Part shown: positions 54,943-60,479 of the stretch, piece by piece
How positions within the stretch are numbered: position 1 is the first letter of the stretch
Layout: the number at the start of each line of letters is the position of its first letter
Source: an uncultured Akkermansia sp.
GTDB taxonomy: Bacteria > Verrucomicrobiota > Kiritimatiellia > RFP12 > JAAYNR01
Reading direction: 5' to 3'
Assembly: GCA_964580075.1 (NCBI GenBank)
Contig: CAZOJL010000001.1
Location: 11,238 to 75,237, forward strand
Length of the DNA: 64,000 bases
Translations under genes and position numbers: made by a program
Notes under the pieces: generated by a model
The model's input: the letters and a program-made list of their open reading frames with translations, nothing else
What the model was told of the DNA's origin: nothing
Databases searched by the model: none

Positions 54943-55071
54943 AACCTAAAAAGAGCAGTTATCAGTGATCGGTGATCAGGTGTCAGTTGGATGCCAATGA
55001 CATGTGCATCACCATTTGGTGCGAAGCCCACTGATCACTGATGACTGATCACTGGTCACTTAGAGCGAATG
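54943..55071. repeat. ~130-bp repeat element, copy 1 (contains internal TGATCAC-rich inverted arms)
   Basis: aacctaaaaagagcagttatcagtgatcggtgatcagg...ggatgccaatgacatgtgcatcaccatttggtgcgaagcccactgatcactgatgactgatcactggtcacttagagcgaatgg. Second copy at 60346-60479, ~85% identical, same orientation. Confidence 0.7.
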
Positions 55072-55675
55072 GCGCTTACTTAAGCGATGCTTCCGATCAT
55101 AATCCTAATCTTAATCTTCATCGTCGCCGATAGAAGACCTGTCCCTTGGCGGCCTTTACGTGAATCTGCAACACTTGACTGTGTTATTCACGGCGAAAGT
55201 CAGCGGGGATTGGTGCGAGCGCGAAACACCCGGTAGCGGCAGCGGCGTCCCCGCCGCGCCGCAGGTGAATGGATCAAAGCCTCTTCGGAGCTTCAGGTTC
55301 ATCTCCATCATCAGCGGCGCGGCGGGGACGCCGCAGCCCTACCCGCTTGCGCGCTTTCTCTGCAGCTTGCGGCGCCGCGGGGACGCCGCCGATTGCTGCG
55401 CGCCCGCACCGATTACCGATAACTTCCGACACGCCGTCAGCCAATGGAAAGGCGCCGCTCACGCGGTAGGGCGACGGCGTCCCCTGTCTGCGTGCGTACA
55501 CGCACAGGCAGGCCGCCGCGCCGCAGGATTTTGGAAAGGAATCTGATTACTGATCCCTGTTCCTTTTGGGACAAAGGGCGAATGAACGGGTCTCCCCGCC
55601 ATCCGCCCTTCCCGCTCAGTTTCTCATCCGTGCTTCTGAACACTGAAGACTGAACACTGAACACTTCCCAACGGG

Positions 55676-57974
55676 CTACCGCAGCAGGATCAGCGTGCCC
55701 GAGGGCGGGATTTGGTACCGGATGATCACGATCCCGCTGCCGCCGGCGCCTGGATTCTTCCTTTCATTGTCAGGGTAGTACGACGCGCCGCCGCCGCCGC
55801 CACCGGTACTCGGGGCGCCGGCTACGGCATCCAAGTCGCAGGCGCCCGCGCCGCCGCCGCCTTTTCCGCCAAGGCTTCCGTTGCTACCCGTGCGCCCCTG
55901 CTGCCAAAGGCCGCCGCCGCCGCCGCCCGCTAACCAGCCCGCAGCTCCGACACCGACGCCGAAATACGCCGAAGCATCGAAGCCGGCGCCACCATCTCCC
56001 GGCCGTCCCCATGCGGGAAAAACGCGTGCTACTCCGTTCGACCCCACCGTGCCATAGCCGCCGCCTCCCCCGGCTACCGATTCGGCGCCGTCGGAGCCGG
56101 TGCCACTGCCGCCATTCTTGCCCTGCGAACCTGTTCCGCCAGCCCACCCGGTCCACTGACTGGCGCTGCCACCGCCGCCGCATCCCCCGTTTCCCACTAC
56201 CGCGTTGCAACCTCCCCCGCCGCCGCCGTTCGCCGTAATACCGAACGCGCTGCTGGGACGTCCGTTGCCTCCCGATGCCCCCGCGTTCGCCGTGCCGCCC
56301 CCGCCGATAACGATCGGGTACGTGCCGGGAGCCAGGGTCGCCCATGGATTTCCGAGGTTATTGGTGATGCCGCCCGCGCCGCCGCCACCACCAACGGGGG
56401 GTCGAGTTGCCCCCCCACCGGCGCCACCGCCGCCGACAATCATGTATTCGACGTTAATAATTCTTGTGTCCACCACGAAGGTTCCCAGAATGTCGCCTCC
56501 GGGGATGCCATTGCTGAAGACGTGCACCCAGTACCCGTCAGTCTTGAATTTCGTGCCGGTATAGACTTCAACGCTAAAGGTGTTCGTCGGCGAGGTGTTC
56601 GTGGTGCCCAAACTGTCGCCGACCGTCGCATAGATGTGGTACGTCCCGCCAGGCAGAACGTATAGCGAGACCGTCGAGATCGGGGAGGAACCGCTGCCCG
56701 CCAGGCCGTAGTCACCCGCCGCCACGTTGGTGTAGAACGTCACGTTGTACGGCGCCATGCCGCCGGACACCACCCCTGTGGCCGTGATGGACTCGTTGTA
56801 GGCGAACGCCTGGTTGTTGGTCGGCGCGGTCACCGACACGGTCAGCGGCGCGGCGATGGTGAAGGTGTGCGTCACCGACGTGACCGTGGTGCCACCGTCC
56901 ACCGCCGTCGCGTAGACGTGGTATTCGGCCGCCTCCAGGGACGCCACCGTGACCGTTGAGGTCACCGTTGACTGGTCGCCGCCGGCCTGCCCGTAGGGGC
57001 CCGCGGCGCTGTTGGTGTAGAACTTCACCGTGGGCGACGTCGCGGTGAACGTGACCGCGGTGAACGTGACCGAGGATTGGTACGGGTACCACGTGTTGGC
57101 AGGCGGAGGCGGCGGCCAGGTCAGGCCCACGGTGACCTCAGGGGCCAATTTGTACCGGATGATCACGATCCCGCTGCCGCCGGCGCCTGGATTCTTCCTT
57201 TCATTGTCAGGGTAGTACGACGCGCCGCCGCCGCCGCCACCGGTACTCGGGGCGCCGGCTACGGCATCCAAGTCGCAGGCGCCCGCGCCGCCGCCGCCTT
57301 TTCCGCCAAGGCTTCCGTTGCTACCCGTGCGCGCCTGCTGCCAAAGGCCGCCGCCGCCGCCGCCCGCGAACCAGCCCGCAGCTCCGACACCGACGCCGAA
57401 ATACGCCGAAGCATCGAGGCCGGCGCCACCATCTCCCGGCCGTCCCCAATTGCTGGTGGATGTGCCCGCTACTCCGTTAGACCCCACCGTGCCATAACCT
57501 CCGCCTCCCCCGGCCACCGATTCTGAACCGAAGGAGGGGGTGCCGCTGCCGCCATTCTTGCCCTGCGAACCTGTGCCGCCAGCCCACCCGGTCCCCTGAC
57601 TGGCGCTGCCACCGCCGCCGCATCCCCCGTTTTCCACTACCGTTATACCGGGCGCCGCCGCCGCCGCCGCTCCCGCCAGCTAGTCCGTTGCCGCCGCCGC
57701 CGCCGCCGCCGCCGCCGGCACTGCCCCACCAGCCGTCACCCCCCGCGCCACCACCACCGACGATGAGGTACCCGACATTGTAGATGGTTTGGTCGACCAC
57801 GAAGTTGTCGCCGTTGGTGAACGTATGCACCGTGTAACCGTCGTAGGTCGTGATCGTGCCGCCCGTGGGCACCGCCTCCGCCTGCGGCGCGAATGCGCCC
57901 AGCATCCCCGCCGCCAGCAGCGCGGAGAGAATGGAAGATTTAAGACTGAAGATTGACGATTTGAGACTACTCAT
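55676..57974 (-). pseudogene. Glycine-rich secreted repeat protein, disrupted by a +1 frameshift near 57649-57652
   Basis: Strong RBS AGGAGG, then MSSLKSSIFSLKSSILSALLAAGMLGAFAPQAEA signal peptide and a Gly-rich domain. The frame then collapses into Arg-rich nonsense. The correct continuation (GITVVENGGCGGGGSASQGTGWAGG…) is in the next frame, which is ORF 55676-57637. Deleting one C of a CCC triplet restores a ~766-aa protein with two [beta N-domain + Gly-rich domain] units and two Ig-like spacers. Confidence 0.55.
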
Positions 57975-58069
57975 TTTCGACCTCCTGTTTGTGACTCCCC
58001 TCTGAATACTGAACACTGAACACTGACTTCTGACTCCTGACTGCTTTCTCATGGTTGTGTTCCTTTTCT

Positions 58070-58175
58070 CTTACACTTAGTCGCCACTCTTAATCGTTTA
58101 CCCTTAGTCGTGCGTTTTAGTCGACTCAGCGGGTCGACTAAGCGTAACCGATTAAGAGTGGCGACTAAGTGTAAG
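58070..58175. repeat. Perfect 27-bp inverted repeat (cttacacttagtcgccactcttaatcg / cgattaagagtggcgactaagtgtaag) with 52-bp spacer containing nested TTAGTCGAC palindromes
   Basis: Seen directly. Located 96-201 bp upstream of the Gly-rich gene start (minus strand). Confidence 0.7.
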
Positions 58176-60172: not shown

Positions 60173-60229
60173 GGCAGGTATTATACGGCGGAGGGCGACG
60201 GGAAAGCAAGACCGTGCGTAATGGGTTAT

Positions 60230-60297
60230 TGGGGGGGGGGTGCGAAATAATGAGATAGGGTGTGTGTGTGTGTGGGTGGGTGTGGGTGGGTGGGTGC
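60230..60297. repeat. G11 homopolymer followed by (GT)7 and (GGGT/GTGG)n microsatellite
   Basis: ttattg-G11-tgcgaaataatgagatagggtgtgtgtgtgtgtgggtgggtgtgggtgggtgggtg. Lies 58-125 bp upstream of the AAA/PD-(D/E)XK gene start. Confidence 0.75.
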
Positions 60298-60345
60298 GCA
60301 GCAGGTGGGGCAGCGGCGTCCTCGCCGCGCCGCTGGCAAATGATA

Positions 60346-60479
60346 AACCTAAAAAGAGCCGTTATCTGTGATCTGTGATCAGTAATCACTTGGATGCCAA
60401 TGACATGTGCATAACCACGGGCATCACCATTTGGTGCGAAGCCCACTGATCACTGATCACTGGTCACTTAGAGCGAATG
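60346..60479. repeat. ~130-bp repeat element, copy 2
   Basis: Direct copy of 54943-55071. Confidence 0.7.

Follow-up and report, generated by a model that had tools for sequence, protein, structure and literature searches.

Intergenic hairpin repeats that carry terminal inverted repeats (TIRs) and are described as MITE-like include the Correia elements of Neisseria, ERIC/IRU and the cyanobacterial Nezha. Hairpins also bound the gene cassettes of integrons, as attC sites, and repeat tracts, such as the fim poly-C of Bordetella, accompany the phase-varying surface-protein genes of Neisseria, Haemophilus and Bordetella. A segment from the chromosome of an uncultured member of the Verrucomicrobiota invites comparison with each of these. 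Within the 64-kb window, i.e. the whole stretch of DNA that was analysed, positions 54943-60479 had been proposed, in what is called here the original prediction, to be an accessory or variable cassette bracketed by direct repeats, whether as an island mobilized by recombination or as a phase-variable, possibly defence-like locus. On the evidence assembled below, this region is probably an ordinary repeat-rich variable part of the chromosome and not a mobile cassette.

All of the features on which the cassette proposal drew are present, namely the direct repeats, a non-coding stretch, a frameshifted glycine-rich (Gly-rich) gene, palindromes, G tracts, a microsatellite and an ATPase gene, although four details had to be corrected. 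The high density of repeats is also real. Spacers at the locus measure 803, ~620 and 632 nt, as against the usual spacer of <200 nt, and G runs of at least 9 nt, a GC-rich motif and a palindrome arm are confined to this locus within the 64 kb; hairpins of short tandem repeats are, as such, found in intergenic DNA throughout the genome of this organism. Two members of one element family lying just 5.4 kb apart, together with the locus-confined repeats, amount to clustering above random scatter, and the locus does somehow attract or retain repeats. The remainder of the window, assessed by the Pfam domains of its large ORFs, is ordinary chromosome. A foreign composition of the ATPase and Gly-rich genes was ruled out, as the GC and GC3 of both match those of the host (GC3 of 0.85 for the ATPase gene). 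The locus would represent the repeat-rich edge of a conserved gene block, at which related species differ in gene order. Two lineage-specific genes, an intact DUF1703-type gene and what would be a decaying Gly_rich_2 gene, occupy the minus strand in head-to-tail order, and non-coding repeats have accumulated in the three exceptionally long spacers next to them, including two ~165-nt TIR hairpin elements, REP-like palindromes, the P1/P2 hairpin, heptamer arrays and simple repeats rich in G. That the two elements flank the genes in direct orientation would be incidental; homologous recombination between them would be possible in principle, and they would neither delimit nor mobilize a unit.

The two elements, copies A and B, both lie on the plus strand. 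Copy A (54943-55072) is truncated at its 3' end, retaining the left TIR AACCTAAAAAGAGCAGTT and missing the right one (positions 6-145 of 175 in the nhmmer model), and copy B (60346-60508) is full length, with both TIRs, AACCTAAAAAGAGCCGTT and AACTGCCGGATTTAGGCT. Full-length copies carry TIRs of the form AACCTAAAnnnnGCAGTT at either end. The pair had been described as ~130-bp direct repeats of ~85 % identity; their presence on the same strand was borne out, but global identity over the shared part (54943-55072 in A, 60346-60479 in B) is 82 % and the true element, as defined by the family alignment, is ~165 nt long, with B reaching 60508 and A being without the last ~35 nt. A 23-mer core and a 31-mer core each occur twice in the 64 kb, with no occurrence expected, and a search with nhmmer found no further diverged copies in the window. 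The closest relatives of A (87-88 %) and of B (90-91 %) are copies located elsewhere, compared with 82 % for A against B. By their sequences, A and B are best viewed as independent members of a family and not as sister copies.

That family is widely dispersed. The 19-mer core was found in 15 metagenome contigs, eight of them from one sample, and in two Verrucomicrobiota MAGs, giving, with A and B counted, at least 14 distinct loci, a lower bound since the search required an exact 19-mer match. All of these loci are intergenic, with copies pointing either way with respect to the adjacent genes, and most copies adjoin gene 3' ends. At least 12 of the other sites have unrelated neighbours, and no paralogue of the ATPase or Gly-rich gene lies beside any other copy. 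The original prediction had tied the repeats to this gene set, naming a ubiquitous REP-like repeat (hundreds of copies) with no such association as the outcome that would count against it, and a dispersed family with no association is what was found. Truncated, split, rearranged and nested copies occur, one copy has its loop inverted relative to its flanks, and the arms are made of slipping heptamer units, as in the rest of the genome's spacers. Like MITEs and other TIR hairpin repeats, the element is short and non-coding (~165 nt), bears TIRs, forms a long hairpin and is present in the lineage as multiple dispersed intergenic copies, some truncated or nested. It differs from them in its heptamer arms, in the inverted loop of one copy and in the following respects. 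No consistent target-site duplication was evident in six full-length copies, although TGAACC-like flanks, overlapping the TIR, are common to some; no autonomous insertion sequence with the same TIRs was detected, the TIR pattern bounding only small elements in the ~600 kb of DNA examined; and no insertion polymorphism was found. Viral contigs yielded no copy. We infer that the element behaves like a MITE or a REP-type element, and because target-site duplications and an autonomous partner element were not found, the term MITE is used for a resemblance and does not denote a demonstrated mechanism. As a TIR hairpin family of uncultured Verrucomicrobiota, it is apparently undescribed so far. The possibility that A and B, whose outer TIRs are intact, form the ends of a composite transposon was considered and rejected, since neither a flanking duplication nor a transposase accompanies them and the arrangement was seen just once.

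The likeness to integron cassettes lies in directly oriented, imperfectly palindromic sites of ~130 nt that flank coding sequence. However, no integrase was found among the large ORFs of the window, the copies are dispersed singly, two genes with long spacers stand between A and B, and R''/R' core sites are unrecognizable. An integron origin was discarded on these grounds and because the ATPase gene has its own putative promoter.

Among the other repeats, the ~800-bp non-coding stretch with GC-rich inverted motifs was confirmed as an 803-nt spacer at 54873-55675. It holds the GC-rich palindromes GCGGCGTCCCCGCCGCGCCGC as inverted pairs (55238-55389), with a fourth copy at 60313-60333; the members of such pairs stand 39-104 nt apart in spacers, and the motif also adjoins an element copy at another locus. 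As short GC-rich palindromes that form inverted pairs in spacers, these resemble REP/REPIN sequences (PMC3733652, PMC3337134), but they number just five in the DNA examined. Two palindromic hairpins with TIRs had been placed inside the bracket. Both exist; P1 (58070-58175), with 41-nt arms that are 95 % complementary, lies inside it, but P2 (60512-60719), in which the arms of P1 enclose a repeat-filled loop of ~150 nt, lies outside. P1 was dismissed as a known RNA, Rfam giving only weak matches to plant miRNA-precursor models, as a generic hairpin would. A G25 homopolymer on the plus strand (58317-58341; C25 on the gene strand) lies between the two genes, 257 nt past the ATPase stop codon and 340 nt ahead of the Gly-rich start codon. 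The same spacer contains a perfect 20-bp tandem duplication, TTACCCACGTTGATACCGTG (58471-58511), just past a small terminator-like hairpin on the minus strand (58521-58535). On the other side of the ATPase gene, the plus strand carries G10 (60231-60240), followed by (GT)7 and (GGGT)n up to 60296, and the (GGGT)n microsatellite could form a G-quadruplex. Both G25 and the microsatellite are thus as first described, but the tract preceding the latter is G10, not G11. These two long G runs, the only ones in the 64 kb, flank the ATPase gene, an arrangement for which the reading adopted here offers no explanation. Many short-read contigs end at G25 and at the microsatellite, with contig ends at G25 being garbled.

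The Gly-rich gene encodes a secreted Gly_rich_2 (PF21722) protein on the minus strand (55676-57977) and has a signal peptide and an AGGAGG ahead of the ATG at 57977. As had been predicted, it is frameshifted, being split into two ORFs, 57477-57977 and 55676-57637. The frameshift falls inside (GGC)5GCCC at ~57648-57675 and recurs in independent assemblies, the first Gly-rich domain is shortened, and the gene is probably a pseudogene, judging from this sequence. An internal repeat is offset by ~1.44 kb, with 55685-56202 being 91-95 % identical to 57122-57642. A contig (L035) that lacks one 1437-bp repeat unit was not accepted as a strain allele, as it has a divergent tail and may result from assembly collapse. 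Searches of PDB sequences returned no match for the Gly-rich protein.

The ATPase gene (58598-60172, minus strand) is intact and, as proposed, is a single gene that joins an AAA-ATPase_like domain (PF09820; 174.5 bits, cut-off 26.1) to a PDDEXK_9 nuclease domain (PF08011; 58.3 bits, cut-off 25.5). Its two-module architecture, Walker A motif RPRRFGKS, Walker B motif DEYD and nuclease motifs I-IV (E419, D449, E462-x-K464 and Q475) are those of the DUF1703 family (Knizewski 2007, PMC1913061), a family also known for its expansion in Cardinium (PMC6387759). In an alignment of 54 sequences the DUF1703 signature positions do not vary, and they agree with the published description. Although a search of PDB sequences with the protein gave no match, the predicted fold combines an ORC/CED-4-like AAA+ module with a CinB-like nuclease domain, and the model suggests an ORC/Cdc6-like ATP switch fused to a PD-(D/E)XK nuclease, the activity of which would be controlled by ATP. 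Abutting the start codon is a promoter-like block (60180-60209, minus strand) that reads TTGCTT (60204-60209), N18, TATAAT (60180-60185), N7 and ATG, and that is conserved with a homologue of 81 % identity in an unrelated context. Since this putative promoter stands directly against the start codon, the sequence suggests a leaderless or near-leaderless mRNA. At least 8000 homologues of the protein were found, and those at 81, 72 and 66 % identity are solitary genes amid housekeeping genes. The gene shares with the DUF1703 family its solitary position, its patchy distribution and, probably, a horizontal acquisition; it differs in the flanking G tracts, which are absent at the homologues, and in a unique 8-aa in-frame insertion, PSAGSGQG, which has 26 nt in common with a neighbouring gene.

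For the population from which the window derives, 10 left-side and 11 right-side contigs from ~15 samples match it at 99.6-99.99 %. The expectation that the locus would vary in presence or absence between the repeats was not borne out, for it is invariant in these 21 contigs (99.9 % identical), the comparison set being short-read metagenome contigs from a single population, beside three distant relatives. None of the 21 joins the beta-helix gene of the left flank to the PQQ gene of the right flank. The claim that the gene content is accessory did hold. Neither gene is present in an 85 % relative of the left flank, where a different, convergent gene follows 73 nt after the beta-helix gene, or in the 77-78 % relatives of the right flank, whose orthologues of the PQQ gene lie within tight co-directional clusters; homologues of the ATPase gene are solitary in unrelated contexts. 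Synteny with the relatives breaks exactly at the stop codon of the beta-helix gene and not at the repeats. Based on these sequence comparisons, the Gly-rich and ATPase genes are taken to be accessory, but not as a repeat-bounded unit. In a 77 % relative, a 3' Gly-rich remnant occupies the same site, and a Gly_rich_2 gene and a PDDEXK_9 fragment lie on the other side. Gly_rich_2 and PDDEXK_9 sequences are therefore found beside the same beta-helix gene in two lineages, which hints at a linkage that is unexplained.

These data bear directly on the idea of a recombination-mobilized island, in which the 5.4-kb segment would be gained or lost through recombination between the direct repeats. Repeats of 82 % identity are long enough for homologous recombination, the genes between A and B are missing from relatives, and in one contig, L006, an element copy forms the junction to another locus, which suggests that copies may recombine. 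Nevertheless, a very low probability is assigned to this idea. No deletion, excised or recombinant form occurred in any of the 21 contigs from ~15 samples, and L006, which was rejected as an excision product, links copy B to the L028 locus via a shared 220-nt block, and not to copy A, as an assembly chimera or an ectopic recombination would. Because the beta-helix stop codon marks the end of synteny and the right flank, too, has been rearranged, there is no empty site with a single repeat, and the Gly-rich remnant that stands without the ATPase in the 77 % relative implies separate histories of the two genes. With A truncated and A and B being independent family members, the repeats do not appear to be boundaries or mobilizers of a cassette. 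It is also rather improbable that the element serves as a transcription terminator module or encodes a functional RNA instead of being selfish DNA. Its strong folding (z of about -4.2), its well-conserved loop, the position of most copies beside gene 3' ends and, on its minus strand, a long hairpin followed by CUCUUUUU, with both window copies downstream of minus-strand genes, would suit such a role. Yet folding is equal on both strands, copies face either way relative to their neighbours, the covariation term is +1.41 (RNAalifold) with no genuine compensatory pair, and loop conservation is partly a matter of ascertainment, the copies having been located via the exact 19-mer. Moreover, no Rfam match was obtained at the gathering threshold or at E<=1, and the truncated, split and loop-inverted copies are better explained by decaying DNA repeats.

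A phase-variable locus, in which length changes in G25, G10 or (GT)n would switch the expression of the Gly-rich surface protein, the ATPase-nuclease or both, is similarly doubtful. As at phase-variable loci elsewhere, a secreted-protein gene is preceded by long G/C tracts and a dinucleotide repeat. G runs of at least 9 nt occur in the 64 kb solely in the spacers upstream of the Gly-rich and ATPase genes, three assemblies show the upstream tract as G10 and two, from other samples, as G11, and assemblies from many samples stop or become garbled at G25 and the microsatellite. However, long poly-G is a technical failure point of short-read sequencing, and so contig breaks tell little on their own. 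The tracts are found outside the reading frames and outside the -35/-10 spacer and do not fit a simple phase switch: G10, at -59 to -68, is upstream of the conserved -35/-10 block, such that a 1-nt change leaves promoter spacing intact, and G25 is at its distance of 340 nt from the Gly-rich start codon. Furthermore, the Gly-rich gene is already broken in every sample at the (GGC)n site, which is not a homopolymer, and ATPase homologues elsewhere do without such tracts. A defence role is unlikely, if less so. Here, the ATPase-nuclease would act alone as an effector against phages or plasmids, with a STAND/ORC-like ATP switch controlling the PD-(D/E)XK nuclease. The protein retains the domain logic of an NTPase switch and a nuclease effector, its gene is accessory with a patchy distribution, some homologues adjoin toxin-antitoxin pairs, and a review lists the PF09820 domain in RADAR RdrA and other systems. 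Against this, neither a partner gene such as RdrB, a deaminase or another defence gene adjoins the ATPase gene, nor did Pfam analysis of the large ORFs reveal a defence, integrase or transposase gene in the window; PADLOC had no match for the ATPase or the Gly-rich protein, and PHROGs had none. The defence-like locus of the original prediction is not upheld by these results, nor is a defence-island setting for PF09820+PF08011 homologues, which are solitary and mostly surrounded by housekeeping genes, and the literature reports no experimental function for DUF1703. A defence role for the ATPase gene would leave the reading of the locus unchanged. There is only a slim chance that two bolder proposals hold jointly. 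In the first, the element would be a so far undescribed non-autonomous hairpin of a freshwater lineage of Verrucomicrobiota, active as a mobile or recombinogenic sequence, with an invertible loop and seeding rearrangements (contigs L006, L012 and L026). In the second, the DUF1703 gene, with its own promoter, would form a mobile or defence unit of one gene, and the two unique G tracts on either side of it would mark its arrival.

For an ordinary repeat-rich variable region, the significance lies partly in its components. DUF1703 genes appear to travel singly with a putative promoter that abuts the start codon, which helps function assignment in a very large orphan family, and the element family, with its truncated, nested and loop-inverted copies, is usable as a marker of genome plasticity. 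The G tracts and the G-quadruplex-type microsatellite systematically fragment short-read assemblies at the locus. The main value, however, is one of caution. Hairpin-forming short repeats and dispersed palindromic elements make up the intergenic DNA of this lineage, and because that DNA is built of such repeats, the bracketing of a few genes by direct repeats arises readily by chance and is not the mark of a cassette.

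The segment is bracketed, as the original prediction held, by two direct copies of a repeat, copy A (54943-55072) and copy B, and two long sub-strings of this element each have exactly two occurrences in the 64 kb, against a chance expectation of none. The repeat had been put at ~130 bp and copy B at 60346-60479; both copies exist, but the family element is ~165 nt long and copy B in reality runs to 60508. Between the two copies lie, as predicted, a non-coding stretch of 803 nt that contains GC-rich inverted motifs, a Gly-rich gene (Gly_rich_2, PF21722) broken in two by a frameshift, the G25 run (58317-58341), a microsatellite of (GT)7 and (GGGT)n preceded by a further G run, and a single minus-strand gene (58598-60172) with AAA-ATPase_like (PF09820) and PDDEXK_9 (PF08011) domains, here called the ATPase, together with a 20-bp tandem repeat in two copies. 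The G run ahead of the microsatellite, previously read as G11, is G10 in the window. One of the two palindromic elements, the 106-nt P1 (58070-58175), likewise lies inside the bracket, but the other, P2 (60512-60719), falls outside it. The high repeat density of the segment is genuine; within the window, G runs of ≥9, the palindrome arm and the GC-rich motif are confined to this locus, and three spacers at the locus are several times the usual spacer length. Hairpin-forming tandem arrays of 7-10-nt units fill almost every spacer of the window, and the repeat style is therefore a property of the whole genome. These arrays are often inverted pairs that make long hairpins (e.g. 14418-14528, 15136-15262, 31154-31223 and 33444-33550, with further arrays at 40392-40473, 42424-42593 and 47436-47483), the TTCAGGT unit reaches up to 19.7 copies, and they give rise to spurious 'FSVQ...' N-terminal extensions of ORFs. 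Repeats and G tracts are concentrated at this locus.

The suggested search for further copies of the element used an exact 19-mer from its core, so that the resulting copy number is a minimum and the 19-mer is invariant by construction. The 19-mer was present on 15 metagenome contigs, eight of them from one sample, as well as on two MAGs labelled Verrucomicrobiota/Akkermansia; two matches in unrelated bacteria were set aside as chance, the rest of the element being absent there. Alignment of the copies gives an element of ~165 nt that opens with a left terminal repeat, AACCTAAAnnnnGCAGTT; heptamer units then form one arm, a conserved loop of ~55 nt separates it from the complementary arm, and a conserved right flank closes with an inverted terminal repeat. 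Copy A is without the right end, and the left part is missing in four other copies. The copy on contig L026 is interrupted by a ~190-nt insertion (pieces 4847-4927 and 5114-5205), while in that on MAG contig CAZDLY010000157.1 (L012, 134-315) the loop is in inverted orientation with respect to both flanks, the outcome expected if the inverted arms recombined. All 14 distinct loci are intergenic, with the element in either orientation and mostly adjoining gene 3' ends, and no ATPase or Gly-rich gene lies near any of the other copies. Copies A and B are 82 % identical to each other, whereas A is 87-88 % and B 90-91 % identical to copies at other loci; because each is closer to copies elsewhere, they are independent family members and not the outcome of a local duplication. 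The fold is equally strong on both strands (z ~ -4.2), the element has no family match in Rfam, and the search revealed no covariation among aligned copies, no consistent target-site duplication at them, nor any larger element bounded by these ends. It is best described as a MITE/REP-like dispersed palindromic element, membership of the MITE class not being proven. Another dispersed repeat lies at the start of the window, where 51-286 is 92 % identical to positions 330-563 of L029, a 117-kb contig from a different sample on which that repeat adjoins a copy of the hairpin element.

For comparison of the locus across metagenome samples, contigs were recovered through identical flanking proteins, 10 at the left junction and 11 at the right, from ~15 samples, and these proved 99.6-99.99 % identical to the window, with no deletion between A and B. 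All left contigs cross copy A into the spacer, and those long enough reach the Gly-rich gene, whose frameshift was called anew in these assemblies (613 + 165 aa); the right contigs cross copy B, reaching the microsatellite or the ATPase gene. Contig ends fall at G25 (58337/58341), in the Gly-rich internal repeat, in the microsatellite (60251-60302) or within the ATPase gene, which was also assembled alone on a 1877-bp contig. L035 is short of one unit (1437 bp) of the Gly-rich internal repeat and has a divergent tail too. In the sole aberrant contig, L006, the copy-B side is fused via a common 220-nt block to L028, a locus adjoining a GltD-like gene. Excision of the segment is ruled out as its origin, since the fusion partner is a different locus, and L006 is either a chimera or a product of ectopic recombination between dispersed copies. 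The proposal of a recombination-mobilised island was thus not borne out: none of the 21 contigs joins the beta-helix gene on the left of the segment to the PQQ gene on its right, and A and B are independent copies.

More distant relatives bear on the broader idea of an accessory or variable cassette. A relative with 85 % identity in the beta-helix gene keeps the upstream block of DUF4175, HEAT, PQQ and beta-helix genes; nucleotide homology ends at the beta-helix stop codon, an unrelated convergent gene follows after 73 nt, and there is no Gly-rich gene, ATPase or element after the beta-helix gene. In a 77 % relative (L044, a Verrucomicrobia MAG), an 89-aa ORF at the same convergent position (5195-5464) matches the 3' end of the Gly-rich gene, and the beta-helix gene has, on its opposite side, a full Gly_rich_2 gene (71-1957) and a 96-aa PDDEXK_9 fragment (2255-2545) with 65 % identity to residues 432-520 of the ATPase. 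The right-flank PQQ gene has orthologues (77-78 %) that lie inside tight FGE-sulfatase/PQQ clusters with none of the segment's features. Based on these relatives, both genes are accessory and their site is a breakpoint of synteny, but the cassette does not stand as a repeat-bounded unit, as no comparison places its boundaries at the repeats. Of the two, the Gly-rich gene looks like the older occupant of this site. In two lineages, Gly_rich_2 and PDDEXK_9 sequences recur next to this beta-helix gene, in different arrangement. The window also carries tandem giant PQQ-propeller genes (42595-47430 and 47421-52889; 1611 and 1822 aa), parts of which are ~80 % identical in DNA; the 85 % relative has one 1714-aa gene, and the pair looks like a lineage-specific tandem duplication.

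In the Gly-rich gene, a signal peptide is accompanied by a good ribosome-binding site at 57977. The first of its Gly-rich domains falls ~45 aa short of the second in length, and its frameshift lies within (GGC)5GCCC; the gene is most likely a pseudogene in this population. The Gly_rich_2 proteins seen here share a conserved tail at the C-terminus, G(S/K)GIVIIRYxIxPPxxGTL(I/F)LLR* (window 55676-55745; L044 5195-5270), which might be a sorting signal. Concerning phase variation, three assemblies have G10 in the upstream tract and two have G11, and the G25 sequence is garbled where contigs end. These data are compatible with hypermutability, but also with poly-G being known as hard to sequence. 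The G10 run lies upstream of the -35 box of the ATPase gene and the G25 run is 340 nt upstream from the Gly-rich gene, which is broken elsewhere; a classical phase switch is therefore not indicated, and phase variation at the locus is not demonstrated. The ATPase gene shares a TTGCTT-N18-TATA(A/G)T-N7-ATG block with its 81 % homologue, and similarity between the two stops ~50 nt upstream; it therefore appears to bring its own promoter, from which the mRNA would probably be leaderless. The G tracts lie outside this conserved promoter-like block and are absent at ATPase homologues.

The ATPase itself is a member of DUF1703, a very large family (at least 8000 matches), and contains every published signature motif of that family. 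In its predicted structure (pLDDT 79.6), the N-terminal part weakly resembles ORC/Cdc6/CED-4-type AAA+ proteins and the C-terminal part, also weakly, the PD-(D/E)XK nuclease domains of CinB/CidB. An identical 26-nt string, CCCTTCGGCAGGCTCAGGGCAGGGCG, occurs on the minus strand at 58684-58709 and 63344-63369, in-frame in two unrelated genes, those for the ATPase and a 472-aa FGE-sulfatase protein; the encoded PSAGSGQG is inserted with respect to every ATPase homologue and to the FGE orthologues of other species, and either a templated patch or a very small in-frame insertion may account for the string. Homologues of the ATPase at 81, 72 and 66 % identity are solitary, between unrelated housekeeping genes, and toxin-antitoxin pairs adjoin some homologues. 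The defence-like locus that had been envisaged found no backing in PADLOC (no defence-system match) or PHROGs (no match), nor in the window, which has no defence, integrase or transposase genes; the literature reports no tested function for DUF1703. Overall, the observation is confirmed and the first interpretation is partly supported; the segment carries members of a repeat family of MITE/REP-like type together with a DUF1703 gene, both of kinds already known.
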